Of a DNA stretch of 64,000 bases, positions 2,998-58,764 are shown in pieces (position 1 is the first letter of the stretch; the number at the start of each line of letters is the position of its first letter). Under the pieces are notes generated by a model. It ran no database searches. It was not told where the DNA came from and saw only the letters and a list, made by a program, of their open reading frames with translations. Made by a program: the position numbers and the translations under genes. This DNA is from a virus (taxonomy: Duplodnaviria > Caudoviricetes): the IMG/VR virus record IMGVR_UViG_3300032050_000002; one strand, 5' to 3'.

Positions 2998-3402
2998 ATG
3001 AAAAATGAATTTATAACATATGAACAAGCGGTGGCTCTTAAAGAGTTAGGTTTTGATGAAAGATGTTTTGGACACTATAATCCAAATGGTGTATTCTTTT
3101 GGAAGATTCTATGTTCAGACGAAGACAATGACCATACATTATCAGTTAAAGATATTATGGAACACGTTGCTGACGGTTATGTTGAAGCACCGCTCTATCA
3201 ACAAGCATTGAAATTTTTAAGGTATAATAATAAATACAGATTTTATATAATACCTTGTAGTCAAAACAAAAAACATCTATTTGAAATAACATTACCTTCA
3301 AGTATTGTATATACGACCATAGATGAACATGCTTATGATACTTACGAAGAAGCTGAGAGAGATTTATTGGATAAATTAATTGAAATAATAAAAAACAAAT
3401 AA
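2998..3402 (+). CDS. Hypothetical phage protein (EFITYEQAVALKELGFDE type)
   Basis: Leaderless ATG at 2998 inside track ORF 2944..3402. Confidence 0.65.
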   Translation: MKNEFITYEQAVALKELGFDERCFGHYNPNGVFFWKILCSDEDNDHTLSVKDIMEHVADGYVEAPLYQQALKFLRYNNKYRFYIIPCSQNKKHLFEITLPSSIVYTTIDEHAYDTYEEAERDLLDKLIEIIKNK

Positions 3403-3728
3403 TATGAAACCAAAAATAGGTGATAAAATAATGGTTAAAACCAAACTTGATGGAGAAAAACTTTGTGAAATTGATTGGTTTGATGATAAAAAAATACATT
3501 TTAAGAATAAAAGTAATTTTGGCATGACTGTAAATTCTGATAGAGTTATATACACGAATAACTCTTTGAGAGGTGCTAATTTTATTTACACAAGTTTCAA
3601 CTAAAACAAATAAAAAATGTTTGATATACCAGAGCCACCAAATGGTAAAAATAATGGTCTTATTATGATAATTTGGTTTATTTTTGTGACATTGATTATC
3701 ACTATGTTTATCACATCATTAAATTAAA

Positions 3729-3760
3729 TTTGGCAGATTCAAAATAATTTCGTATCTTTG
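3729..3760 (+). promoter_or_regulatory. Bacteroidota-type promoter TTTG-N20-TATCTTTG
   Basis: TTTG 3729-3732, TATCTTTG 3753-3760, ATG 3765. Confidence 0.85.
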
Positions 3761-3764
3761 TATT

Positions 3765-4442
3765 ATGAAAATTTGGCACATATCCGACACACATACATTC
3801 CACGGGTTATTAACAATACCTGAAAACATCGATATGGTTATCCATAGTGGTGACGTTAGTAACCCCCAAAATCAGTATCTAAACAAACCTGAAGTTGAGA
3901 ACTTCATCTATTGGTTCAGTAAGTTACCTATCAAATATAAAGTGTTTGTTGCGGGTAATCACGATACATCTATTGAAAAGAAACTAATAAACAAGATGGA
4001 TTTCGAGTCCAACGGTATTACCTATTTGGAAAATGATTTTGTTGAGATAGAAGGTCTTAAAATTTGGGGTTCACCAATAACTCCAACATTTGGAACAGGT
4101 TGGGCATTTAACAAAAATCGGGCAAAGACTCACGAAGTTTGGGCAAAGATTCCTGATGGAACTGACATTGTTGTTACTCACGGTCCTCCAAAAGGTGTGT
4201 TGGATTTATCTTATGATAGACTGAATCAATTGGAATTTTGTGGTGATAATTCTTTAAAAAAGAAAATGTTATCTTTAAATCCAAAGTTAGTTTGTTTCGG
4301 ACACATCCATAACTGTGAAGATATTATAAACGCTGGAACAATGAAACTATCTGTAAGTGATACCATATATAGTAATGGTAGTGTTGTTACCGATGGTAAG
4401 TTTGGTAAGTTAAGTAGTAATGGTAATGTATTTGAGATATGA
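3765..4442 (+). CDS. Calcineurin-like metallophosphoesterase
   Basis: HISDTH, HSGD, AGNHD, VTHGPP, FGHIH motifs. Confidence 0.9.
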   Translation: MKIWHISDTHTFHGLLTIPENIDMVIHSGDVSNPQNQYLNKPEVENFIYWFSKLPIKYKVFVAGNHDTSIEKKLINKMDFESNGITYLENDFVEIEGLKIWGSPITPTFGTGWAFNKNRAKTHEVWAKIPDGTDIVVTHGPPKGVLDLSYDRLNQLEFCGDNSLKKKMLSLNPKLVCFGHIHNCEDIINAGTMKLSVSDTIYSNGSVVTDGKFGKLSSNGNVFEI

Positions 4443-5668: not shown

Positions 5669-5871
5669 ATAGTAATCAATTCAAAGTAGGGGATAAAGTT
5701 ATAAAAAACGAAGAAACTTGGGAACCAAATGATTTTGATAGTTGGGGAAGAGGAATTGGTGTGGGAATTATAGTTGAGCCTCCTTTTGAAATGGATGAAG
5801 GTGAAGTTGATGTAAGATGGCCTAATGGTAGAAGTTTTGAATTCACACACCAATTACGAAAGGTGAATTGA
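5584..5871 (+). CDS. Fusion ORF: attC-encoded leader (aa 1-26) + cassette 3 domain
   Basis: Codon 27 is the GTT recombination triplet (5662); cassette ends 5662-5682 / 5865-5885 are 20/21 complementary. Confidence 0.7.
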   Translation: MSKEMRKYIDTFKQRLTESENLNISDVSDSNQFKVGDKVIKNEETWEPNDFDSWGRGIGVGIIVEPPFEMDEGEVDVRWPNGRSFEFTHQLRKVN

Positions 5872-6020: not shown

Positions 6021-6053
6021 GTTTAATTCAAATTAATTTTGTATCTTTGTATT

Positions 6054-6698
6054 ATGGAAACCGATAAAAAGACATATAATAAAGAGATTGATGAGGCGGT
6101 TGAACGTGTTAACAACGGTCAGTTTGTATCAAATGAAGAAGTTATGAAAGAGATTGATGAATTGTTTGTTAAACCGGTAATCTTCCTCGACCACGATGGT
6201 GTCATCTGCCTTTCAACGGAATGGGGTTCTCGTTTCAAAAATAAAGAAGGATTGGACTCTGTATTTGACCGATTTAATGATAAAGCGATTAAGGTATTAA
6301 ATCAGATTATTGAAGAAACAGATTGTGAAATTGTTATTAGTTCGGATTGGCGTTTTCACGCACCATTAGAACAGATGCAAGAACTTTATCGTATTCGTGG
6401 AGTTAAGAAAGTTCCGATTGATTATACCACAACTGGTTTAGATTGGAAACAATTTATGACTATAACACCAAATAATGAACTTGAAGCAACACGTAGTTTT
6501 GAGATTTTAAATTGGTTGGAGGCACATCCCGATGTTACAAAGTGGGTTGCGGTTGATGATTTGAATATGAAGGAACAATACGGTGGTATCGATGGAAACT
6601 ATAAATATGGTTTAACAAACTTTGTTCATACTCCCCGTTCAAAAGAAGGTATTAAACAATCAGGAGTCAAAGAAAAGATAATTAAGTTTTTAAAATAA
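6054..6698 (+). CDS. HAD-superfamily protein (phage RNA-repair/Swiss-Army-knife HAD type)
   Basis: IFLDHDGV, IVISSDWR, WVAVDDL; leaderless ATG 6054 after TTTG(6018)-N20-TATCTTTG(6042). Confidence 0.75.
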   Translation: METDKKTYNKEIDEAVERVNNGQFVSNEEVMKEIDELFVKPVIFLDHDGVICLSTEWGSRFKNKEGLDSVFDRFNDKAIKVLNQIIEETDCEIVISSDWRFHAPLEQMQELYRIRGVKKVPIDYTTTGLDWKQFMTITPNNELEATRSFEILNWLEAHPDVTKWVAVDDLNMKEQYGGIDGNYKYGLTNFVHTPRSKEGIKQSGVKEKIIKFLK

Positions 6699-6730
6699 TT
6701 TGGTAAATTAAAGAAGATTTTGTATCTTTG
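6699..6730 (+). promoter_or_regulatory. Bacteroidota-type promoter driving the non-coding RNA cluster
   Basis: TTTG 6699-6702, TATCTTTG 6723-6730; followed by GTTCTTTG rather than ATG. Confidence 0.8.
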
Positions 6731-6840
6731 TATTGTTCTTTGAAAGATTTATTGTGTTGTTCCCTTGAGAAAGGAAGTGCATTACCAGTAGAGGAATCAA
6801 GTTGTGCTCTACCAACACAGAGGACTTCTCACCCTCAAAT

Positions 6841-6967
6841 AGTCAGGTGACATTTGGTGTCATTAGTGTGGGAATGAATGTATACGACTGTCAAGTCAGT
6901 GACGTAACTGGCCAAATCCTACTACGGGTAGTATACGGCTAAACAGGTTCGAATCCTGTCCTGACTA
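6841..6967 (+). ncRNA. tRNA-like RNA 1 (127 nt), expanded anticodon domain
   Basis: AGTCAGG/CCTGACT acceptor, T-arm ACAGG-TTCGAAT-CCTGT, TTAGT/GCTAA stem around a large insert. Confidence 0.7.
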
Positions 6968-7182
6968 CAATGAGTAAGAGATACTCATTGGTCTTTGGTC
7001 AATAGATGGTTAAACAGGACTCGCTAAAATCTGGACAGCGAAAATGCCAGTTCGTAGGGCTCAAGGCGGCAATCACACCCTCTCCTACGTTGTGTGACTT
7101 TTTTAATAGGGGATGCCCTGTAGGTTTCATCAATAGGAAAAAACCGAAATAACTACTCACCGAATCTCAAGTGGGGAAATAT

Positions 7183-7308
7183 AGTCAGGTGGCGGAATTG
7201 GTAGACGCTAGAGCTGGAGTTAGGTCACACGCATTTGGGTTCGAGTCCCGTTAGTTGGGCCAGCTAGGAGAGCCGTAGACCGTGTGGGTTCAAATCCCAC
7301 CCTGACTA
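7183..7308 (+). ncRNA. tRNA-like RNA 2 (126 nt), Leu-type D arm, internal second T-loop hairpin
   Basis: AGTCAGG TG GCGGAATTGGTAGACGC ... GTGGG-TTCAAAT-CCCAC CCTGACT A. Confidence 0.7.
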
Positions 7309-7415
7309 CTGAATCAGTTTGTCCGTGGGAACGACTTGAAAGAGTCACTGTAATCAAAATCCAATCACTGTCTCACTGGTGTATTGGGCTAAATGTGAGG
7401 AAAAAACGGTCATAT

Positions 7416-7514
7416 AGTCAGGTGGTGTATATGGTAACACCCTTCATTGTAAGGATAAACAAGGTTGATTGTTTATCTGGAAGGACGAAGTCGGTTCGAA
7501 CCCGACCCTGATTA
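7416..7514 (+). ncRNA. tRNA-like RNA 3 (99 nt), hairpin inserted 3' of a possible anticodon (UGU or GUA, ambiguous)
   Basis: AGTCAGG/CCTGATT, D stem GTGT/ACAC, CCTTC/GAAGG stem, T-arm GTCGG-TTCGAAC-CCGAC. Confidence 0.7.
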
Positions 7515-7591
7515 CACTTGGTTTCGGTAGAGTTCCAGAAAGCATAGACTGAACAAAAAACAATCTACCTCGTTGACATAGAAGTGTCGTT

Positions 7592-7726
7592 AGTCAGATG
7601 GCGGAAACGGAAGACGCAACTGTGATGATTTTGCCGGAAGGTGTAACTCCTTTGTCTTAGGACATAAACAATAGCGGGGTTAATCAGTTCTCAATCATCG
7701 TGTGGGTTAGAATCCCACTCTGATTA
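7592..7726 (+). ncRNA. tRNA-like RNA 4 (135 nt)
   Basis: AGTCAGA/TCTGATT (covarying pair 7), GCG..GACGC D arm, GTGGG-TTAGAAT-CCCAC. Confidence 0.65.
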
Positions 7727-7795
7727 CTGAAAATAAAACTCTGGGGTCAGGGTTTTGTTTCGCCGAAAGGTGTTGTTTTCAACGGTTCGAGTCCG

Positions 7796-7908
7796 AGTCA
7801 GGTGGCGGAATGTTAGACGCTTAAGGGTTGGATGGATGTTGCAACTGAAAAACAATGAATATAACCTTGAAAAAATCCATCGTGTGAGTTCAAGTCTCAC
7901 CCTGACTA
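7796..7908 (+). ncRNA. tRNA-like RNA 5 (113 nt)
   Basis: AGTCAGG/CCTGACT, GCGGAATGTTAGACGC, GTGAG-TTCAAGT-CTCAC. Confidence 0.7.
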
Positions 7909-8033
7909 CAATATGATAACAACAATATTAGTATACATTGGGTTTATCCTTTGGTTTTGGGCGGGATATAATGTGGGAAAAAATAACCGAAGATAAATTT
8001 GGTAAATTAAAAATAATTTCGTATCTTTGTATT

Positions 8034-8315
8034 ATGACAGAAAAGGAATTTGAAGCAATCGGAAATATTATGGATAACTTTGATTTTGACAAAGTTCACG
8101 AAGTTATGAGTTTACTTAAATGGGAATGGGTTGGCACCGAAAATGGTGTTCCAAGTAAGTCCGAGTTAAGAAGTGAAGCGAGAAGATTATTGAAGATGTC
8201 GATTAATGATAAAACAAGAGTTTCAACAGGTGGATTTGAAGTTGATTACATTAATGATGGAGATGGATTTGTTGAGTTAAAATTTGTTGTTTCACAATGG
8301 GATTCAGAAATTTAA
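8034..8315 (+). CDS. Hypothetical phage protein (true start 8034)
   Basis: TTTG(7998)-N20-TATCTTTG(8022)-tatt-ATG. Confidence 0.65.
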   Translation: MTEKEFEAIGNIMDNFDFDKVHEVMSLLKWEWVGTENGVPSKSELRSEARRLLKMSINDKTRVSTGGFEVDYINDGDGFVELKFVVSQWDSEI

Positions 8316-10051: not shown

Positions 10052-10917
10052 ATAAAGAGTATAAAATAACAAGAGAACAATTTGAGGAGATTACATACTA
10101 CAAAACTATGTTTGAGTCTCATGCCGATACAATAAAATGGCTCTGTGAAAAGGAAAAAGATGATGTGGTATATGGATTTCAATTAGGACAAACATATTCT
10201 CATATGAGACAATGTTTTATTGGCATGTTGGAATTAGAAACAAAGATTAGAGAACAAAACAGAAATGATGAGTAAACGAACTAAAATAAATTTCAATACT
10301 ATTAATGGTGATAATTGGAAAAAACTTGATGTTGGTGACTTTGGTGCTCGTATCAAAGAACAAGAAAGATTAGAGTTTGAGAAGAAAAAGAAAAAAGAGG
10401 AAGAAGAAAAAGAACGTATTAATAATATACCTTGTCCTGCTTGCACATCAACAAACAAACATCACCATAAAAAATATGAAAATAATGGTATCATTGGGAC
10501 TGGTTATTCTTCTTGGTTAATTGAAGAATATCTAGTATGTTTGCAGTGTGGAATACATTTTAGTGATATTAAAAAATGAAAAACAATATGACAATAGAAA
10601 CATTAAAACAATTAATTGAAATTGAGTTTGAAAGAACTGGAACCATATCTCAATTCAAACACGAAGTATTCAGGTTATTAGACCTATACGAATCTGATAA
10701 GAAACCTATATCACTTCCAAATGTAAATTATTCACCGACTCTAACTTTAGAGGGTAACGGAATGGTGCCTTATTCTGAACTTTGTGGTTGTAATCCCAAA
10801 AATGGTGGTAGTGGTATTTGTGGATGTGTAATCGGAAACAAGATGGTACCAAATGTAAAAACCAAACAATATAATACACCTGGAACTTGGTAATTAAATT
10901 TAAAAAATAAAAATAAT

Positions 10918-11490
10918 ATGGGACTAATAGAACACGCAAAAATGGAATTAGAAATAGCAGGACTTTTTGATGAAGATTCTGACTATGCTGGAATGGTGGC
11001 AAAGGATGTGATGGAATTGGTAGAGGTATTTGCAAAACAAGGTCATTCAGGAATGTCAGCACCTTATGTAGCAAAACTATTTAATAAATTAGCCAACTAT
11101 GAACCACTACAACCAATTACCGGTAAAGATGAAGAGTGGGGTGATGTAAGAGATTTGGGAGGTGATAAATCTTGGTATCAAAACAAAAGATGTTCAGCTC
11201 TCTTTAAAGATGGTAAAGATGGTCAAGCGTATTACATTGATGCGGTTATTAAACGAGACCAAAATGGAACTTGTTGGAGTGGTATGGCTTGGTTATCTGA
11301 AGAAGATTATAAAACAGGTGATAGAAGTAAGATGGTTGGTAAGAAAGGTTATGTAAAATCATTTCCATTCACACCTAAAACATTCTACATTGATGTTAAG
11401 GATGTTGAAGTTGCAAAAGATGATTGGGAATCGTTTGTTGTTGACCCTTCTCAATTGGATGAAGTTAGTGAGTATTATGATTTAAAATAA
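10918..11490 (+). CDS. Hypothetical phage protein
   Basis: 190-aa ORF with QGHSGMSA motif, followed by a terminator. Confidence 0.6.
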   Translation: MGLIEHAKMELEIAGLFDEDSDYAGMVAKDVMELVEVFAKQGHSGMSAPYVAKLFNKLANYEPLQPITGKDEEWGDVRDLGGDKSWYQNKRCSALFKDGKDGQAYYIDAVIKRDQNGTCWSGMAWLSEEDYKTGDRSKMVGKKGYVKSFPFTPKTFYIDVKDVEVAKDDWESFVVDPSQLDEVSEYYDLK

Positions 11491-47849: not shown

Positions 47850-48464
47850 ATGAATAAATTAGATAAAGATTATCAAAACCTATTAAGGGATATTTTACAA
47901 AATGGAACCAAAAAGCAAGACAGAACTGGAACAGGAACACTCTCAGTATTTGGAAGACAATTTAGACATGATTTTCGGGACGGATTTCCTCTCCTCACCA
48001 CAAAACGAATGGCTTTTAAACAGATTGTTACAGAACTCATCTGGTTCCTCCGAGGAGACACAAACATCAAATTCTTAGTTAATAATAATTGTCACATTTG
48101 GGATGGTGATGCTTATAAGAATTGGTGTAGACAATTTGAAGTTGACCCAAATAATTTTGATACCGAAGAATTATCTAAAGGTCATAATGACCAATGTTGG
48201 GGTTACTCCATATTAGACCACGTTAAACCTACATCAAAAGAATATAAAAGAGGTCAAATAAATGCTTATTTAGAAGGTAAAGCAGATAAACCTTTCTTTT
48301 ATTTAACACAAGAAGAATTCATCAACAAAATCAAAACCGATAATGAGTTTGCTAATAAGTGGGGTGAATTAGGGCCTGTGTATGGGGCTGGTTGGCGTAA
48401 TTGGGGTGGTAAATCAGATGACAATCTTTACGAAGATTATTTGAAAAAAGTTAAAGAAAAGTAG
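47850..48464 (+). CDS. thyA: Thymidylate synthase, N-terminal part
   Basis: [43 protein letters not shown] then stop. Confidence 0.9.
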
Positions 48465-48503: not shown

Positions 48504-49205
48504 ATGGTAATTATGGACTACAAAAGAATACACGACAACCTTATTGAAAGAGGAAAAAATAGAAAATTAGATGGATATGTTGAAAGACATCACATTATAC
48601 CAAAATGTATGAACGGGACAAATGAACCAAATAATTTAGTGGAATTAACAGCAAGAGAACATTTTTTAGTACATTGGTTATTACACGAAATGTATCCAGA
48701 AAATAGTGATTTAAGGTATGCCTTTTGGTCAATGTGTCGTAATTCAGATAACCAACAAAGATATAAACCATCTTCAAGGGTATATGAATATGCTAAACAT
48801 AAAATGTTAGAAATATGGCAAAAGTTCAAACCATCAGATAAACAAATAAATTCTATTAAAGAAAGTTTAACTGGAACTAAATGGTATCATAAACCAGATG
48901 GAACTAATTTAAGAGCATTTCCAAATGACCCAAAAATTAGTGATGAAGGATGGTTACCTGGTAGGTTTGGTGGTAAATCAATTTCTGATAAGGCTAACAA
49001 AGTTAAAGAGAAGAAATACGAAGGAAAGAAATTACCTTCAACATCAAACAAAAGATGTTCAATAGATGGTGTTGAATTTGAATCGGCTAAAGCGGCTGCG
49101 GACTTTCTTAATATAAATGAATTTTCTATTAGATGGATATTACAGGGTGGAGGTCGGTCAGAGAAACATAAAGAAAAATACAAAAATTGGTTCTATATAA
49201 AATGA
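48504..49205 (+). CDS. HNH homing endonuclease
   Basis: ERHHIIPKCMNGTNEPNNLVELTAREHFLVHWLL; own TATTTAT motif. Confidence 0.85.
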   Translation: MVIMDYKRIHDNLIERGKNRKLDGYVERHHIIPKCMNGTNEPNNLVELTAREHFLVHWLLHEMYPENSDLRYAFWSMCRNSDNQQRYKPSSRVYEYAKHKMLEIWQKFKPSDKQINSIKESLTGTKWYHKPDGTNLRAFPNDPKISDEGWLPGRFGGKSISDKANKVKEKKYEGKKLPSTSNKRCSIDGVEFESAKAAADFLNINEFSIRWILQGGGRSEKHKEKYKNWFYIK

Positions 49206-50144: not shown

Positions 50145-51083
50145 ATGAAGAAGTTGAAAGACAAAACGACAAAACGAATAAATAAAGCTATGGAGTATTT
50201 ACACGAAGATGGAACTCCTTTTACAAAAGAAGAGTTTCTACAAAAATTAAAAACAGATAAGGAATTTAATAATGAGTTCGGTAATAAAGGAATAGACCAA
50301 ATCGCAAACCTAATCAACGACCTCAAAACAAATCCAGACTCAAGAAGACTAATGGTTTCAGCTTGGAATGTAGGTGAATTAGACCAAATGGTTCTTCCTC
50401 CCTGTCATTATGGATTTCAAGTTTATACAAGAGAGTTGAGTGAGTTAGAAAGACATGATATTAAAGAACAATATGGGTTTGATTGTAGAAAATTAGCAAA
50501 ACCTTCTATTAAACAATTAGATGATGCGAACATCCCAACCAGAGCAATCTCTTTAATGTGGAATCAACGTTCAGTAGATACATTCTTAGGTTTACCATTT
50601 AATATTGCATCATATGGTTTACTACTTGAAATTATAGCTAAATCAGTTAATATGATACCTGATGAATTGATTGGTAACTTGGGTGATGTGCATTTATATT
50701 CAAACCATATTGAACAAGCTAAAGAACAGATTGGTAGAGAGTTAGATATAATTGAGAGAATAAATTACGGAGTTAATATTTTAGGTTATGAATCATTATT
50801 AGACTATGGCCATTCTCAGAATGAAGATGAATTAATAACAAAGTTATGTAATGAATGGGGTGTACCAAAAAGAACAAGAGAACCATATCCATTACCAACA
50901 TTAAACATCAATACAGAATTTTGGCCTTATGAAGGTGGTGAGTGTGGTGTAGGTCCTTTAGACGCTATTAAAGTGTTTGAAGCGTTTAAAAATGATAACT
51001 TCTGTAGATGTTTATTAGAAGAAGATATACAATTAGGTAACTATCAATCACACCAAACAATTAAAGCTCCCCTATCCAATTAA
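50145..51083 (+). CDS. thyA: Thymidylate synthase, C-terminal catalytic part (alt. start 50190)
   Basis: IDQI, PDSRRLMVSAWN, LPPCH, QRSVD.FLGLPFNIASY, GDVHLY.NH. Confidence 0.9.
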   Translation: MKKLKDKTTKRINKAMEYLHEDGTPFTKEEFLQKLKTDKEFNNEFGNKGIDQIANLINDLKTNPDSRRLMVSAWNVGELDQMVLPPCHYGFQVYTRELSELERHDIKEQYGFDCRKLAKPSIKQLDDANIPTRAISLMWNQRSVDTFLGLPFNIASYGLLLEIIAKSVNMIPDELIGNLGDVHLYSNHIEQAKEQIGRELDIIERINYGVNILGYESLLDYGHSQNEDELITKLCNEWGVPKRTREPYPLPTLNINTEFWPYEGGECGVGPLDAIKVFEAFKNDNFCRCLLEEDIQLGNYQSHQTIKAPLSN

Positions 51084-53196: not shown

Positions 53197-56100
53197 TTAA
53201 TCTATTTTAGAAAAAAGTGTTGTTAAATACTTTTTATTCTCATCATATATTGTTATTTGGTAGAAACCCGTATTCAAAAATCTTAAATCAACTTCATCTT
53301 CAGAATTTATATTTTTAGTTAAATAAACTTTACCTAATATATCTGAAACAACTAAATTAAATTTCTCACTTTCATTATGAAATATTCTTATTTGTAATAA
53401 ACCATTACCCGGATTCGGAAATACTATAAATTCAAAATCTTTATTATCTATTTCACCAAAACCAACTGTTTTTGATGTATTACAAACTTTAGTAACTCCA
53501 AAATAAGCCATTGGACTTGAACCACAAGTATTAACACCCATCACACTAAATGTACCACCCATAAAAGATGAGCTTGTTTTAGCCATAACACTATTTCCTG
53601 TTGTTGAACCAATAAATTGAGTTCCGTTAGAGTTATTCCAAATATAACTTGTAATTCTTGGAGATGTTGATGCAACTAATCTAATTGTATCAGGAAAACA
53701 AACCGATGAAGTTCCTGTAACAGTGGGTCTAACAGTCAATAAACCAACTTTCTTTTTACTTAATACACTACCACAAGCAAATTGTGTCGCTAATCTTATA
53801 CTATCACAAGAATTATTAATACAAGATGTGGATTCAAAATTACTTGGGAAAAATACGTCTATAGAGTTCGTTCCTTGACCTCTCACTATTTGAGCATTTC
53901 CTGGTACAGTCCAATTAAACGATAACGCTCCTGTTGTAGATACACTATACGTGTTAGTAAACCCATTATCAACACAATTAACACCACTTATACTAACACT
54001 TGGTAAACCCAAATCAACGGTTCTAATTCTTGTTATAGGATTTCCACATCCACCCGTAATTACAACTTGAATGTTTCCACCTGTAAAACCATTTTGGAAT
54101 GTTACATTAATTGAATTAGTTCCCTGACCACTAATTATTGTTGAGTTAGCAGGTACAGTCCACAAATAGTTAACTCCACTTATTGGACTAACACTAAACG
54201 TTGCAGGAGTGTTAGTTCCTACTAAACTACAAACACTTCTTACACCTGAAATTGCTGAAGCGGAAATTGTTGATGTTGTTGTTGATAGTGTTCTATTTGA
54301 AGATATACTTCCTCCACAACCATTGTTTAAGTTAACACTAATTGTTCCTGAACTAAATGAGTTAGATACTAATACATTTATTGAATTAGTTCCTTGACCC
54401 GATTGTATTGTCATATTAGTAGGAACAGTCCAAGTAAATGTTCCACTTTGATTTGTAACACTATAAGTAACTGATTGACCTAAGTACGGACACAAATCGC
54501 CAGGGCCTGTTATAGTTCCTATATTAGCGTAAAGATTATTATTAGATACAGTTCCATAAGTCATAGGTGATGAACCACATTTGTTAACTGACATCACACT
54601 AAATTGACCTGAAGTAAAGTTTGTACTAAATTTTACTTTAAGTGTGTCATTACTACTTGAACCTATTATACTAACACCATTAGGTACATTCCAAATATAC
54701 ATAAACGATGTAGGTACAGAATCGACTCTATAAGTGTAAATTGTATTACCATCAGCACAAACTGTTGTAGGTCCTAAGATAGACGTAGGTCTAACAACTA
54801 ATCTATCAATCGTAAATTGAGTTGTACTACTTCCACAAGAATTTGTTGCAGTAACTGAACCACCTGAACCACTTACCAACATTATTGACACTTTAAATTG
54901 TACAGTATCGTTACCTTGTCCACTATATATATTAACTCCATAAGGTACAACCCAATTATAAGTCATATTTGGTTGTGAATTTGTTACAATGTATGATTTA
55001 ATACTACCTGTAGGTTCACCACAGAAACTACCTGATACGATTGGTTTATTAGGTAATTTAGTAACCCAAATACTTCTATGATAAGTAATACCATTAGAAA
55101 CAACATCAACTTCAATACTATCTTGAACGAACCCTGAAGAAAAATTAACATTTATTGTTGGGTTACTTAATCCATTAGTTGATGTTATACCATTAGGTAA
55201 AATCCAAGTAATACTTTCAGGACTTGCGTTAGAATAATCAATGGTATATGAACCAGAACTAAGACCACATATTGAAGTGGGACCTTCTATTTGACCAACA
55301 TTAATAATTGCTGACGTACAACCCAAAGTCATTGGAGAAACTGATTGACAACCTTTAGAATCCGTAACAGTTAATGTGTAATTACCTGACGCGACGCCCG
55401 TTAAATTTTGTGTTGTTTGACCATTTGACCAACTGTATGTAAAAGGAGGAGTTCCACCAATAACACTACTACTTACAACACCATTATTTGAACCACAATT
55501 AGGGTAAGTTGTTATATCTAATGATATACTAATTTCTGATGGTTGAGAAATATTAATATATGTAATTTTTGTACAACCTTTATTATCTGTAACAGTAATT
55601 TGATAATTACCTGATGTTAAATTAGAAATACTACTTTGAGTATTTCCTGTATTCCACATATAAAGATAAGGTAGAGTTCCTCCTGACGCAGTAACCGAAG
55701 CGCTACCATTATTACCACCATAACAATTCACATTTGTCGTTGTTACAATTGTTGTTAGTTGAGTTGGTTGAGTTATTGTAACCGTTCTTGTCGTCTGACA
55801 CCCCTTTGAATCCGTAACTGTTACACTATAAGTGTTTGCCACAAGTGAGAAAATATCTTCTGTTGTTTGACCATTACTCCATAAGTAAGTATAAGGTGAT
55901 GTTCCTCCTGATGGAGTTAAGTTTATACTACCGCCAGGTTGTCCAAAACAACTTGGGTTAAAACTAGTTGATGTTGAGGCAAGTAACGTAGGTTGAGTAA
56001 TTGTGATTGATGTAGTTGATGTACAACCATAAAAATCTGTGACTGTAACTGAATAATCTCCTGATGTTAGGTTTGATATGTCCTCAGTAGTTCCACCATT

Positions 56101-58764
56101 AGACCAATTAAAATTAAAAGGTGAATTACCTAACGGAGTTAAATCTATACTACCATTATTACCACCATTACAACTAACATTAACACTTGTTGTTGATAAT
56201 ATAGAAGGAAATCTAACAGTCCAAGAAGTTAATACATCATAAGCATTGTTAGAACATCCAATACCTGTAGAACAATCACCTCTGCGACCTCTTATTTGAA
56301 CTACACTTCCGGCGGTTAGTGATGTTGTAGATATTAAAGTTCCTGGAGTATAACTTTGCCAAGATGTACCATTAATAGTGTATTGAAATATATCTGAACA
56401 GTTTATACCATTACTACCCGAATTGAATGTCGCTGATACATCACTACCAACACAAACATTGTTTGAGTTGGGTGTTTTAGTATTTAAAGTTGGATTAATT
56501 GGGTCAGGAATTACATTAACGGTATGAACGGGTGAGGTTCCTACACACCCTTTAGAATCTGTAACTACTACTCTATAATCTCTTGTTGATGTAGGTGTTG
56601 CGTTTATTGTTGTGGTTGTAACACTGTTTTGCCAAGTAGAGTTAAAAAATTGCCATTGATAAAAATAAGTTGGAAATCCCGATGTTACAGTTGAAGTTAT
56701 ATTATTAGTTCCCGAACCTCCAGCACATATCTGACTTGTGTAAGTGTTTAAGGTGACAGATGGGTTTGTTGCGGTAGTTAACGACACAGTATTTGAATTA
56801 ACAGATTGATTACAAGTATTTGTAATACTAACATAATAATTTCCTAATGTTGATGTAGAATAAGTCGATGAGTTAGCCCCTGATATTGGATTGTTATTTA
56901 AAAACCATTGATAAGTAAAAGGTTGTCTAACTCCTGATGCGGTAACTGAAAAAGTTACTTGTGATGTACAAGTTGTTTCATTAATAGGTTGTGTAGTTAT
57001 TGTTGGCGGTGAAGAAGTGTAATTAACTGATAATTGAAATGTTCCTCTTGCATTACTATAACCTGTAACCATCACATAATATTCTGTTAAATCTGTTGTT
57101 GCAAATGTAACTTCAGAACGAGTACTACAAAAATCATCACTATAGGTTAAACAAGTAAGTGCTCCACAAGTTCCTGTATATACAAATAATTTAGTATCAA
57201 AAGAAGTTCCTGTACATAAACTTAATGTTACATTTTGTCCGTTACCAATAACCTTATACCAAACCCCTGGTGCAGTCCAAGTCTCAGAGCCACCGTTATA
57301 ACAACTTGGTGAATCACCTGTTTGAGTCGCATTTTGAGTACTACCATTGAAAGTTGTATTACAAGAGGTGATAATCGCTCCTGAACATTCATCATTTGAA
57401 GGTGGTGGAATTGTACACTGAACACTTCTTGTTCTTATTGTTACTGATTCTCCACATGAGTTATTTGTATGAGTATAAAATCTCACAGTTTCGTTTGAAC
57501 TTGGTGTATAAACAACTGGTGTTGTCCCGTAAACTAAAACTGTTGTTCCTCCATTATTACTAATAGTTATAAAATCTGTTAACACCGAACTTCTAAATGT
57601 ATATTGAATTCCTCCTGTTAAACTAACCACTGAGTATTCACCCGCGTAACCACCTGTTGTAATATTTTCTTGAGTTCCTGAACAAGTTGGTGTGTATGTT
57701 GATGTCGGCCATTGACCATTTGAAGCGGTTAGACATCCAGGACCTGAAGTTGTAAATGTCCATACCGAACATCCTATAGCATTACCTGCAGAATTCTTTG
57801 GGATTATTTGCCAATAATATTGTGTGTTATAACTTAATGTTGATGGAGTATATGTTGTTCCAACTTGGTTAACAACAAAAGGTGGAGACGAATTTGACCC
57901 AAAATAAACATCATAACTTGTTGCACCAGATACCGCTCCCCAAGTTAAAGTAGGTCCTATAAATACACCCGTTTGATTATTTGTTGGCGATGTTAAAGTT
58001 GCACAAATAGGAACCGCTTGATAAGTTAATATAACTCTACCCGCAGCACCTCCACCACCAGCTCTACCTGTTGTATTATTTTTATACGCACCGCCACCTC
58101 CACCACCTGGAGATACACCTGACGAACCTGCTCCACCTGAAGAGTGACCACTACCACCATTACCTCCACCAGCAGGTGCGGTAGCTCCCGCAGTTCCCGT
58201 TGCATCAACACCGGCTAAAGTAGTTCCTGCTGATGAGCCCCCTCCTCCCGAAGTTACCCCACCAACTCTACCACTACCACCCCTACTTGATGTTCCTATA
58301 CACCCTGTTGTAGAACCAACTCCAGCAGTAGTTCCAACTGCACTTTGTCCGCCCTTAGCGACAACACCGTTAGTTGATACTGTAGGGGCAATGTTTGACA
58401 ATTTACTAACCCAAGTATCATTACCGTTAGATGCGTTACCTTGAACTCCAGCTCTTGCTGCTCCAACACTATAATAAATTGTTTGACCAGGTGTTACAGA
58501 TATTGTTGTTGTTGAACGAGAACCTCCCGCTCCGCCCGCAAATCCCCCTGTTCCTGATGTTGATTGTCCGGCACCAGCTCCACCACCACCCCAAGCATCA
58601 ATTTTAATTGAGTATACGTTAGCAGGGACAGTCCAAGTTCCTGATGATGTTCCAACATTTGCTCCTGAGGCGGGCATTGTTTGAGAAAAATTTTTAAGAT
58701 TACATAAAATAAAAATAGATAAGAATAGGGTCTTAAAAAATGATGATAAAGTAAGAGGTTTCAT
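53197..58764 (-). CDS. 1855-aa adhesin-like T9SS cargo (Gly-rich, FnIII, SprB repeats, PKD-like, T9SS CTD)
   Basis: Signal peptide; CNGGNNGSIDL...WSNG.TTEDI..L..G.YSVTVTD..GC repeats; C-terminal VFPNP...DILGK...L.TGFY. Confidence 0.85.
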   Translation of the reverse strand: MKPLTLSSFFKTLFLSIFILCNLKNFSQTMPASGANVGTSSGTWTVPANVYSIKIDAWGGGGAGAGQSTSGTGGFAGGAGGSRSTTTISVTPGQTIYYSVGAARAGVQGNASNGNDTWVSKLSNIAPTVSTNGVVAKGGQSAVGTTAGVGSTTGCIGTSSRGGSGRVGGVTSGGGGSSAGTTLAGVDATGTAGATAPAGGGNGGSGHSSGGAGSSGVSPGGGGGGAYKNNTTGRAGGGGAAGRVILTYQAVPICATLTSPTNNQTGVFIGPTLTWGAVSGATSYDVYFGSNSSPPFVVNQVGTTYTPSTLSYNTQYYWQIIPKNSAGNAIGCSVWTFTTSGPGCLTASNGQWPTSTYTPTCSGTQENITTGGYAGEYSVVSLTGGIQYTFRSSVLTDFITISNNGGTTVLVYGTTPVVYTPSSNETVRFYTHTNNSCGESVTIRTRSVQCTIPPPSNDECSGAIITSCNTTFNGSTQNATQTGDSPSCYNGGSETWTAPGVWYKVIGNGQNVTLSLCTGTSFDTKLFVYTGTCGALTCLTYSDDFCSTRSEVTFATTDLTEYYVMVTGYSNARGTFQLSVNYTSSPPTITTQPINETTCTSQVTFSVTASGVRQPFTYQWFLNNNPISGANSSTYSTSTLGNYYVSITNTCNQSVNSNTVSLTTATNPSVTLNTYTSQICAGGSGTNNITSTVTSGFPTYFYQWQFFNSTWQNSVTTTTINATPTSTRDYRVVVTDSKGCVGTSPVHTVNVIPDPINPTLNTKTPNSNNVCVGSDVSATFNSGSNGINCSDIFQYTINGTSWQSYTPGTLISTTSLTAGSVVQIRGRRGDCSTGIGCSNNAYDVLTSWTVRFPSILSTTSVNVSCNGGNNGSIDLTPLGNSPFNFNWSNGGTTEDISNLTSGDYSVTVTDFYGCTSTTSITITQPTLLASTSTSFNPSCFGQPGGSINLTPSGGTSPYTYLWSNGQTTEDIFSLVANTYSVTVTDSKGCQTTRTVTITQPTQLTTIVTTTNVNCYGGNNGSASVTASGGTLPYLYMWNTGNTQSSISNLTSGNYQITVTDNKGCTKITYINISQPSEISISLDITTYPNCGSNNGVVSSSVIGGTPPFTYSWSNGQTTQNLTGVASGNYTLTVTDSKGCQSVSPMTLGCTSAIINVGQIEGPTSICGLSSGSYTIDYSNASPESITWILPNGITSTNGLSNPTINVNFSSGFVQDSIEVDVVSNGITYHRSIWVTKLPNKPIVSGSFCGEPTGSIKSYIVTNSQPNMTYNWVVPYGVNIYSGQGNDTVQFKVSIMLVSGSGGSVTATNSCGSSTTQFTIDRLVVRPTSILGPTTVCADGNTIYTYRVDSVPTSFMYIWNVPNGVSIIGSSSNDTLKVKFSTNFTSGQFSVMSVNKCGSSPMTYGTVSNNNLYANIGTITGPGDLCPYLGQSVTYSVTNQSGTFTWTVPTNMTIQSGQGTNSINVLVSNSFSSGTISVNLNNGCGGSISSNRTLSTTTSTISASAISGVRSVCSLVGTNTPATFSVSPISGVNYLWTVPANSTIISGQGTNSINVTFQNGFTGGNIQVVITGGCGNPITRIRTVDLGLPSVSISGVNCVDNGFTNTYSVSTTGALSFNWTVPGNAQIVRGQGTNSIDVFFPSNFESTSCINNSCDSIRLATQFACGSVLSKKKVGLLTVRPTVTGTSSVCFPDTIRLVASTSPRITSYIWNNSNGTQFIGSTTGNSVMAKTSSSFMGGTFSVMGVNTCGSSPMAYFGVTKVCNTSKTVGFGEIDNKDFEFIVFPNPGNGLLQIRIFHNESEKFNLVVSDILGKVYLTKNINSEDEVDLRFLNTGFYQITIYDENKKYLTTLFSKID

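Follow-up and report, generated by a model that had tools for sequence, protein, structure and literature searches.

The 64,000-nucleotide (nt) stretch of DNA analyzed here, referred to as the window, comes from a virus (Duplodnaviria; Caudoviricetes; IMG/VR record IMGVR_UViG_3300032050_000002) and represents a freshwater Bacteroidota phage. Within positions 6841–7908 it carries an array of five tRNA-shaped units, all on the + strand, that share an acceptor stem and an intact T arm and hold unrelated structured inserts between the D arm and the T arm. A preliminary description, made from the sequence alone, had placed five such elements of 99–135 nt here, and all five are present at those positions and with those lengths. 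The features of the locus are as follows.

6039–6698, + strand: free-standing HAD phosphatase, RNA-repair ('Swiss Army Knife') type (Pfam HAD_SAK_2, E = 4e-23), directly upstream of the array
6699–6730, + strand: promoter of the Bacteroidota sigma-A type, TTTG-N20-TAtcTTTG, ahead of the array, with no start codon after it
6735–6840, + strand: transcribed leader ahead of unit 1, with light RNA-library coverage
6841–6967, + strand: unit 1; acceptor stem of the family and consensus T arm ACAGGUUCGAAUCCUGU, but an aberrant D arm; 77-nt insert with multiple hairpins; the sole unit under the Rfam tRNA threshold
6968–7182, + strand: spacer 1, present in RNA libraries, with no Rfam match
7183–7308, + strand: unit 2; D arm of Leu type; the insert is closed by helix S1 and contains an internal T-loop hairpin and possibly a pseudoknot helix, S2; Rfam tRNA 36.2 bits
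7416–7514, + strand: unit 3; class-I-like chassis; 24-nt hairpin in an anticodon-loop-like AUUGUAAG...UG context; Rfam tRNA 33.5 bits
7592–7726, + strand: unit 4; Leu-type D arm and A7-U66; insert with S1, a crossing 8-bp helix S2, helices P3 and P4 and a nested extra hairpin; Rfam tRNA 29.7 bits
7796–7908, + strand: unit 5; D arm of Leu type but without G19; insert of 62 nt closed by S1, with GAUGGAU/AUCCAUC as a possible crossing helix; Rfam tRNA 36.0 bits

The 9-mer AGTCAGRTG occurs exactly five times in the window, always on the + strand at a unit start, against 0.44 occurrences expected. Common to all five units are the acceptor stem AGUCAG(G/A)/(C/U)CUGA(C/U)U, A73 and the T arm, the acceptor stem having 7 bp, the T stem 5 bp and the UUCRANY-type T loop 7 nt. 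Including A73, units 1–5 measure 127, 126, 99, 135 and 113 nt, and the segments from D arm to T arm account for 49–85 nt. Pair 7 covaries (A7-U66 in unit 4, G7-C66 in the other four), and the T stems show compensatory differences between units, against a constant acceptor stem. Comparison of the units thus bears out the covarying pair, the shared acceptor and the intact T arms of the preliminary description. Its claim of mostly Leu-type D arms holds for units 2, 4 and 5, which have the D arm of an E. coli-type tRNA-Leu, but not for unit 3 (class-I) or unit 1 (aberrant). The Leu identity set (A73, A15-U48, G18G19, A20a) is complete in units 2 and 4, and U48 is also present in unit 5. Closing helix S1 was found in units 2–5, and the minimum-energy folds of all five units contain the acceptor stem and the T arm.

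No unit is an ordinary decoding tRNA. Standard ARAGORN found no tRNA gene in the window. A canonical anticodon arm (5-bp stem, 7-nt loop, U33, purine 37 and canonical spacing) is absent from all five units, and no functional loop in them presents a Leu anticodon (NAG or YAA). The Rfam tRNA model (RF00005, gathering threshold 29 bits) gives units 2–5 scores of 29.7–36.2 bits and does not report unit 1, compared with 50–77 bits for true tRNAs of related phage loci; its alignments of units 2–5 skip 31–62 nt in the anticodon region. At permissive thresholds, the tRNA model was the only Rfam model to match the array. A tmRNA identity was rejected: ARAGORN -m reported none, RF00023 had no match, the acceptor pair is U3-A70 rather than the alanine identity pair G3.U70, and the D arm is complete.

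The array belongs to a large family found in phage contigs. The 5' core, AGTCAGRTGGCGGAA, is present at no fewer than 120 loci (at least 120) in IMG/VR. Members were detected in viral contigs by anchored regular expressions, which yielded 141 distinct members of 67–259 nt among the IMG/VR matches listed. Near-invariant in these are U-1, AGUCAGG, U8, A14, A15, G18G19, U48, the T arm ACAGGUUCGAAUCCUGU, CCUGACU, A73 and C74. Because this search fixed the acceptor strand, the scan was repeated with the D arm alone, giving 118 distinct viral hits. Seventy-nine of these lack an anticodon arm, and 27 are true tRNA-Leu genes of 80–85 nt with UAA, UAG or CAA anticodons and varied acceptor stems, AGUCAGG occurring in 0/27. 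Among the 79 armless hits the acceptor is AGUCAGG in 53; in the other 26 it differs, with pairing kept by compensatory changes. The rest of the scan consists of one AGUCAGG hit that passes the anticodon-arm test by chance and 11 hits without a recognizable 3' end. In the pooled set of 192 distinct members, U8 is kept in 188/192, U48 in 161/192 and A73 in 162/192, and the T loop is UUCGAAU or a near variant throughout. All acceptor pairs and 4/5 T-stem pairs show double-sided changes; the percentage of paired positions in this alignment is partly inherent in the detection rule, whereas the compensatory counts are independent of it. The family consensus carries the full Leu identity set.

The family is restricted to phages. 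In about 185,000 species genomes the 3' core was found in 18 stretches only, all on contigs of metagenome-assembled genomes (mostly Chitinophagia, Sediminibacterium, Flavobacterium and Saprospirales), and no host tRNA bearing it was found there. None of 50,697 GenBank phage records contains the 3' core; the array had no match among GenBank phages, and a family member used as query returned generic T-arm matches only. Complete jumbo-phage genomes have 1–8 family copies each, always on one strand, and members usually lie within phage tRNA clusters of up to 25 tRNAs. Family members have the same flanks as the ordinary tRNAs of these loci (531–657 examined), in which U-1 occurs in 73% and C74 without an encoded CCA in 499/531 (94%). 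All five window units likewise lack an encoded CCA, with A73-C74 followed by A or U in each. The preliminary description was correct about the missing CCA, but the lack is no peculiarity of the array, and its normality in these phages suggests maturation by the same enzymes as ordinary tRNAs. tRNA finders skip family genes or give them arbitrary anticodons. We found no description of the family or its core sequences in open-access papers or preprints, where analogues alone came up, subscription journals being outside that coverage.

Some loci combine the family with other RNAs. A short member in L060 (13031–13101, − strand) has the family acceptor and a CUUUUAA loop, scores 66 bits and looks like a genuine tRNA-Lys(UUU). 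Another in L008 (14065–14138, − strand) is tRNA-Lys-like, with a CUU anticodon and G33. The chassis may also be used for real, possibly nuclease-resistant, lysine tRNAs. One family-bearing tRNA cluster, in L020, includes a near-threshold freshwater-1 RNA at 4124–4186 (70.1 bits, cut-off 72). In a second, L100 (5724–6218; 11258–11367), the models found a phage tmRNA at 68.5 bits and, weakly, a YrlA-like RNA at 35 bits.

The promoter ahead of the array, proposed earlier as a host-type site without an ATG, is borne out by the enrichment of its type: 24 sites in the window against 6.3 expected. At least eight are close copies (2962, 3729, 6018, 6699, 7998, 37259 and 62063 on the + strand, 31115 on the − strand) with a near-identical early consensus, TTTGG.A.ATT.AAA...TTTYGTATCTTTG, that precedes many early open reading frames (ORFs). 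The copy at 6699 is the only close one without a start codon after it and the only one ahead of a non-coding RNA. Where checked, other copies end about 4–8 nt ahead of an ATG, and the early mRNAs of this phage may, as the arrangement suggests, be leaderless or near-leaderless.

RNA libraries contain the array with its inserts. Parts of the stretch were present in 6 RNA runs and most of it in 14 DNA runs (freshwater, lake and some labelled fungus metagenome). Assembled contigs from four freshwater metatranscriptomes were mapped onto 6400–8300. They are confined to about 6720–7870, from just past the promoter to inside unit 5 (first covered bin 6720–6783), and none lies on the flanking ORFs at 6400–6719 or 7936–8300, which argues against DNA carry-over. 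Exact contigs at 7535–7803 and 7555–7739, from two runs, include all of unit 4 with its insert, the former spanning two spacers as well; in a third run, an exact contig at 7528–7679 ends within unit 4. Unit 2 with its insert is covered by a contig at 7181–7425 with 3 differences. An exact 164-nt contig at 6958–7121 lies over spacer 1, whose RNA is either precursor or a separate stable RNA. No insert-removing junction was seen in these contigs, which may miss rare forms and cover units 1, 3 and 5 poorly. The junctions listed connect conserved chassis ends of different units, as expected because other family members are present in the samples. Depth peaks over the conserved 5' and 3' modules, indicating many expressed relatives. 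The remaining spacers (7309–7415, 7515–7591 and 7727–7795) also appear, with the leader, in RNA libraries. A strong hairpin followed by a T-rich stretch lies at 7731–7762 (z = −2.6 for 7728–7795).

The inserts, or cargos, are highly diverse and yet structured in ways that persist among homologues. Clustering of the 192 inserts by sequence gives 162 clusters, of which 140 have a single member. Homologues of the unit-4 type occur on at least 9 viral contigs, and their alignment proposes a structure of S1, a crossing 8-bp S2 that abuts U48, a 3-bp P3 and a hairpin P4. In this alignment 99.6% of cells are paired and six pairs are changed on both sides, a number reached in 0/500 shuffles; slid controls gave 0–1. 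Two of the six lie in P3, S1 changes via wobble, and S2 changes through G.U wobble only. Extra hairpins differ between window unit 4 and two homologues and are nested at one internal site. For the unit-2 type, five further contigs were aligned and all cells are paired, with compensatory changes in S1 and in the internal T-loop hairpin and an invariant candidate crossing helix, GGUC/GACC. A pseudoknot topology is plausible in units 2, 4 and 5. Different cargos are carried on the same chassis, and one cargo on chassis variants: the unit-2 cargo occurs with three states of the D loop (no insert, a 21-nt insert and a 33-nt insert). Internal T-arm-like hairpins are over-represented in the inserts (10/192, 1.3 expected), in only 5% of members. 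Antisense matches of the five inserts to the rest of the window are at chance level (best 11–12 nt, E 0.1–1).

Close relatives reveal that the array is a mosaic. The metagenome contigs L302 and L303, with flanks 90–97% identical to the window, carry e3-e4 and X-e1-e3'-e4, respectively, and the viral contig L244 has a homologous leader and the unit-2 type alone. Unit 1 has a homologue in L303 at 89% identity, with a compensatory T-stem change. Unit 3 of L303 is 94% identical otherwise, but its hairpin is swapped for an unrelated 25-nt one between AUUGUAAG and UGGAAGG. Both L302 and L303 lack unit 5; their unit 4 finishes with the acceptor strand and trailer of unit 5, fused to the next promoter, the expected product of recombination between chassis ends. 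The leader stretch 6752–6849 is 83% identical to the leader of L244 and mostly conserved in L302, whereas the spacers of the array are wholly different between close relatives.

We consider it fairly probable that the five units are expressed, non-decoding chassis RNAs, derived from class II tRNA-Leu, that display variable structured cargo. This reading rests on an anatomy that lacks a decoding arm, on membership in the family, on RNA-library contigs that retain the insert, on covarying structure and on the mosaic make-up of the arrays. The preliminary description had offered two alternatives, intron-containing tRNAs or a family of tRNA mimics (decoys or scaffolds), and the second is supported by the large phage-only family, the RNA contigs and the compensatory changes. 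Its argument that identical acceptors speak against five amino-acid identities was reasonable, and the Leu identity set fits it. It had proposed ARAGORN and homologue alignments as checks. ARAGORN gave nothing in standard mode and discordant identities in intron mode, and the alignments gave compensatory changes in both chassis and insert helices. RNA contigs and covariation are both present.

In the proposed mechanism, host RNA polymerase would transcribe the array early, from 6699–6730, as a single precursor. The tRNA maturation enzymes would release the units, with RNase P cutting at U-1/A1, 3' trimming and CCA completion after A73-C74; we infer this processing because the flanking signals are shared with ordinary tRNAs. 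The chassis, consisting of acceptor stem, A73, D/T elbow and T arm, would fold into an L shape, since the bases of the tertiary contacts are conserved, and thereby gain defined ends and stability. It would probably be recognized by tRNA-binding proteins, possibly by leucyl-tRNA synthetase (LeuRS), which needs no anticodon. E. coli LeuRS requires A73, A15-U48, G18G19 and A20a, and it still charges tRNA-Leu variants without both the anticodon arm and the variable arm (PMC9976931). The identity set of the family matches these requirements, so LeuRS recognition, and with it leucylation, is possible. The cargo would replace the anticodon and variable arms, project at the position of the anticodon arm and, as the variable part, specify function, most plausibly by binding host or phage factors in takeover or counter-defence. 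Arrays would evolve by gain, loss and swapping of units and cargos through recombination at the conserved chassis ends.

Several observations weigh against this interpretation. Of the Leu identity set, units 1 and 3, which are of non-Leu type, have only A73, and unit 5 is without G19. Charging of every member is made somewhat doubtful by the lower conservation of A73 (64/79 of armless hits vs 25/27 true tRNA-Leu) and U48 (69/79 vs 27/27), and by the large D-loop inserts of some members, which might disturb LeuRS recognition. The crossing helices S2 are maintained but without double compensatory change. Clustering of ORFs across 91 loci revealed no constant protein neighbour and no ORF family in >10 loci. 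The RNA evidence consists of assembled contigs, which show neither ends, strand nor level. Finally, the extreme diversity of the inserts and the unit-3 hairpin swap between near-identical relatives may indicate an unimportant cargo sequence, which would favour an explanation in which the chassis acts as a decoy.

As a decoy, the top half of a tRNA would soak up or distract a host factor able to recognize the acceptor, T and D features, for instance a defence toxin or nuclease aimed at tRNAs, LeuRS, EF-Tu or the CCA-adding enzyme, and a freely drifting insert would just abolish decoding and keep the fold. Conservation of the chassis far beyond that of the cargo, with 140 singletons among 162 insert clusters, and outright replacement of the unit-3 hairpin in an otherwise 94% identical unit agree with this idea. 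Several same-strand copies per genome would fit a dosage effect, and the array lies in an early region with a Tad3 homologue and adjoins an RNA-repair-type HAD phosphatase that recurs in other loci. However, cargo types persist over at least 6–9 contigs with compensatory changes and conserved unpaired stretches, which exceeds what any stable fold would require, and paralogues of one genome nearly always differ in cargo rather than being copies. In addition, the roughly 185,000 genomes yielded no host tRNA carrying the 3' core, and we know of no tRNA-targeting toxin linked to this acceptor sequence. We judge the decoy explanation unlikely, though it is the main rival. That the units are functionless debris of recombination or decaying tRNA-Leu pseudogenes has the least chance of the explanations considered. 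Members do derive from tRNA-Leu, those in L061 and L066 keep an unpaired CUUAAG remnant of the Leu(UAA) anticodon loop, and array content is unstable between relatives. Against such decay, the chassis is near-invariant over 192 members of very different phages, and its acceptor and T stems, like the insert helices, have undergone compensatory changes. The array also has its own promoter and is present in RNA libraries that lack the flanking ORFs, and armless hits outnumber true tRNA-Leu by 79 to 27.

Could the inserts instead be introns, removed by an unfamiliar bacterial or phage pathway (for example, an endonuclease and phage RNA-repair enzymes) to leave decoding tRNAs? The unit-3 insert lies formally at 37/38 of an AUUGUAA loop with a Thr-like UGU, the RNA-repair-type phosphatase gene adjoins the array, and the short L060 member, at 66 bits, resembles a genuine tRNA-Lys(UUU). 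ARAGORN in intron mode does report 3–5 'genes' in the array, but these are force-fitted, and their identities disagree (Pro-GGG, Asp-AUC, Pro-UGG, Ser and Stop) although the acceptor stem is the same in all. Deleting one segment restores a canonical anticodon arm in 21/177 family members, compared with a mean of 11.5 (range 4–18) when inserts are shuffled; in the window this works for units 3 and 5, and no single deletion makes units 1, 2 or 4 canonical. The RNA contigs of units 2 and 4 retain the inserts, with no excising junction. To our knowledge, group I introns are the only type known in bacterial tRNAs; the inserts are too short for these, no Rfam intron model matches the array, and RtcB was found in 0/5 carrier genomes tested. 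The intron branch of the preliminary description is accordingly not supported, and we regard it as very improbable. A ribosome-directed mimic, such as a tmRNA-like rescue RNA or another RNA that enters the A site, would use a charged chassis with the insert as message or factor-binding site. The layout of the units is tmRNA-like, with an insert between D region and T arm and pseudoknot-like pairings in units 2, 4 and 5, and a family-bearing cluster can include a tmRNA (L100). Unlike tmRNA, however, the units have a full D arm and U3-A70 in place of G3.U70, neither ARAGORN nor Rfam found a tmRNA in the window, and the inserts lack a common reading frame or tag; this explanation is slightly less probable still than introns.

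If the units are indeed cargo-bearing chassis RNAs, transcribed phage genes of an abundant class have so far escaped notice, as the D-arm scan gave anticodon-less RNAs and true tRNA-Leu in a ratio of 79 to 27, about 3:1. Phage tRNA counts, and inferences on codon usage and genetic code, would be inflated by family genes. For the 50-year-old problem of the role of T4 RNAC/RNAD-type RNAs, these genes would supply the first extensive material for comparison. They also provide hundreds of small natural folds, including pseudoknots and extra T-loops, usable as pull-down baits for partners. A bolder extension, which we hold to be rather unlikely, is that Bacteroidota phages run a natural modular RNA display, in which a host-processed, CCA-tailed and perhaps leucylated chassis would present fast-evolving, aptamer-like cargos that bind and neutralize host defence or takeover targets, with arrays diversifying as cassettes are shuffled at the conserved chassis ends. 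Such a system would be an RNA-based counterpart of protein anti-defence islands.

By analogy, the closest known systems appear to be T4 RNAC and RNAD in nature and the engineered tRNA scaffold in design. T4 RNAC (species 1) and RNAD (species 2) are small stable non-decoding RNAs of the phage tRNA region, with roles still unknown (PMC3014915, PMC9697503), and are classed as late RNAs (PMC9697503). Like the family, they have tRNA-like ends and are encoded among phage tRNA genes, and RNAC has a T arm and an acceptor-like terminal pairing. The likeness is analogy only: RNAC scores 17.5 bits against a tRNA-type model, and no homology to the family was found. T4 has each RNA as a single copy and lacks both the Leu-type D arm and the combination of conserved chassis and variable cargo, and its RNAs are late, whereas the present array follows a host-type promoter. 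In the tRNA scaffold of Ponchon and Dardel, the acceptor, D and T arms are reportedly kept and a foreign RNA is grafted in place of the anticodon stem-loop via a closing helix, with cellular processing and nuclease resistance said to be the purpose. Units 2–5 match this layout, and the family suggests that nature uses the same principle. The scaffold is man-made, whereas the family is natural, multi-copy and hypervariable, and its cargo, unlike that of the scaffold, often pairs with the variable region or is joined by a D-loop insert.

Class II tRNA-Leu itself shares the D arm GGCGGAAUUGGUAGACGC, identical in E. coli tRNA-Leu, together with A73, A15-U48, G18G19 and A20a, and the family T arm and the bases just before it are similar to those of true phage tRNA-Leu(UAA). 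The family lacks the anticodon stem-loop and Leu anticodon of that class, and the true tRNA-Leu genes at the same phage loci differ from it in their acceptor stems and measure 80–85 nt. Each of the remaining candidates (tmRNA, Y RNAs and allo-tRNAs) departs from the family in a defining feature. The tmRNA domain and YrlA-type Y RNAs place a non-tRNA module on acceptor- and T-like elements, reportedly with phage-encoded examples (PMC4201824). Models of these RNAs had no match in the window, and the family lacks the G3.U70 pair. Y RNA termini form a Ro-binding stem, not an acceptor stem; no Ro60 (TROVE) domain was seen among about 50 window ORFs in a scan that was not exhaustive. Allo-tRNAs and irregular tRNA polycistrons from soil metatranscriptomes include some RNAs unable to translate (Mukai et al. 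2017, PMC5389517; review PMC7609411). Like the family, they are unusual tRNA-shaped RNAs of bacteria and phages and some are polycistronic, but the acceptor/T geometry of allo-tRNAs is 8/4 or 9/3, their long variable arms are Ser-type and anticodon loops are present, whereas in the family the geometry is 7/5, the elbow is Leu-type and the anticodon arm is missing. Cultured Bacteroidota phages appear to show related oddities. In Tenacibaculum phage pT24, a cultured jumbo phage (L140), two near-identical 'tRNA-Undet' genes at 5790–5868 and 6157–6235 have normal acceptor, D and T arms and an extended short-loop hairpin in place of the anticodon arm; they are separate from the present family.

The HAD phosphatase upstream of the array is a recurrent minority neighbour rather than a fixed partner. 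HAD_SAK_2 homologues lie 0.04–5 kb from family members in five other loci. In the complete 197-kb phage G004 (L301), members at 1482–1603 and 1779–1872 are followed, 14 nt later, by a HAD_SAK_2 gene at 1887–2461. One of these two members has a large D-loop insert, a second HAD_SAK_2 gene lies at 3287–3877, and a tRNA-like gene upstream (about 1372–1448) has C33 in a CCUGGAG loop. L141, the one viral relative found by the HAD gene, has no array after it. Among five carrier genomes only, HAD_SAK_2 was found in 2/5, a CCA-adding enzyme in 1/5 and RtcB in 0/5. The commonest neighbour families in the 91 loci are terminase, a methylase and DUF932. Near the window array are two calcineurin-like phosphoesterases, a UvrC-like nuclease and a homologue of the anti-Thoeris protein Tad3. 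The Tad3 homologue, at 10918–11490, is a clear match to this inhibitor of Type I Thoeris (E = 1e-39), and 10265–10579 has a weak similarity to Lar-like restriction-alleviation proteins, which places the array at the edge of an early counter-defence region.

Two further loci of the window are unusual. Thymidylate synthase is apparently split, with Pfam positions 1–107 at 47850–48464 and 104–226 at 50145–51083, separated by about 1.7 kb that holds at least one ORF (48504–49205). The split could be an intron or homing-element insertion, by analogy with T4 td; no group I intron was found at the Rfam gathering threshold. On the − strand at 53197–58764, a 1855-aa protein encoded in otherwise phage-like DNA has PKD-like and SprB repeats and a T9SS C-terminal sorting domain. 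The sorting domain and SprB repeats point to a Bacteroidota host, and the protein would be either a host-derived surface protein on a large phage or a sign of host DNA.

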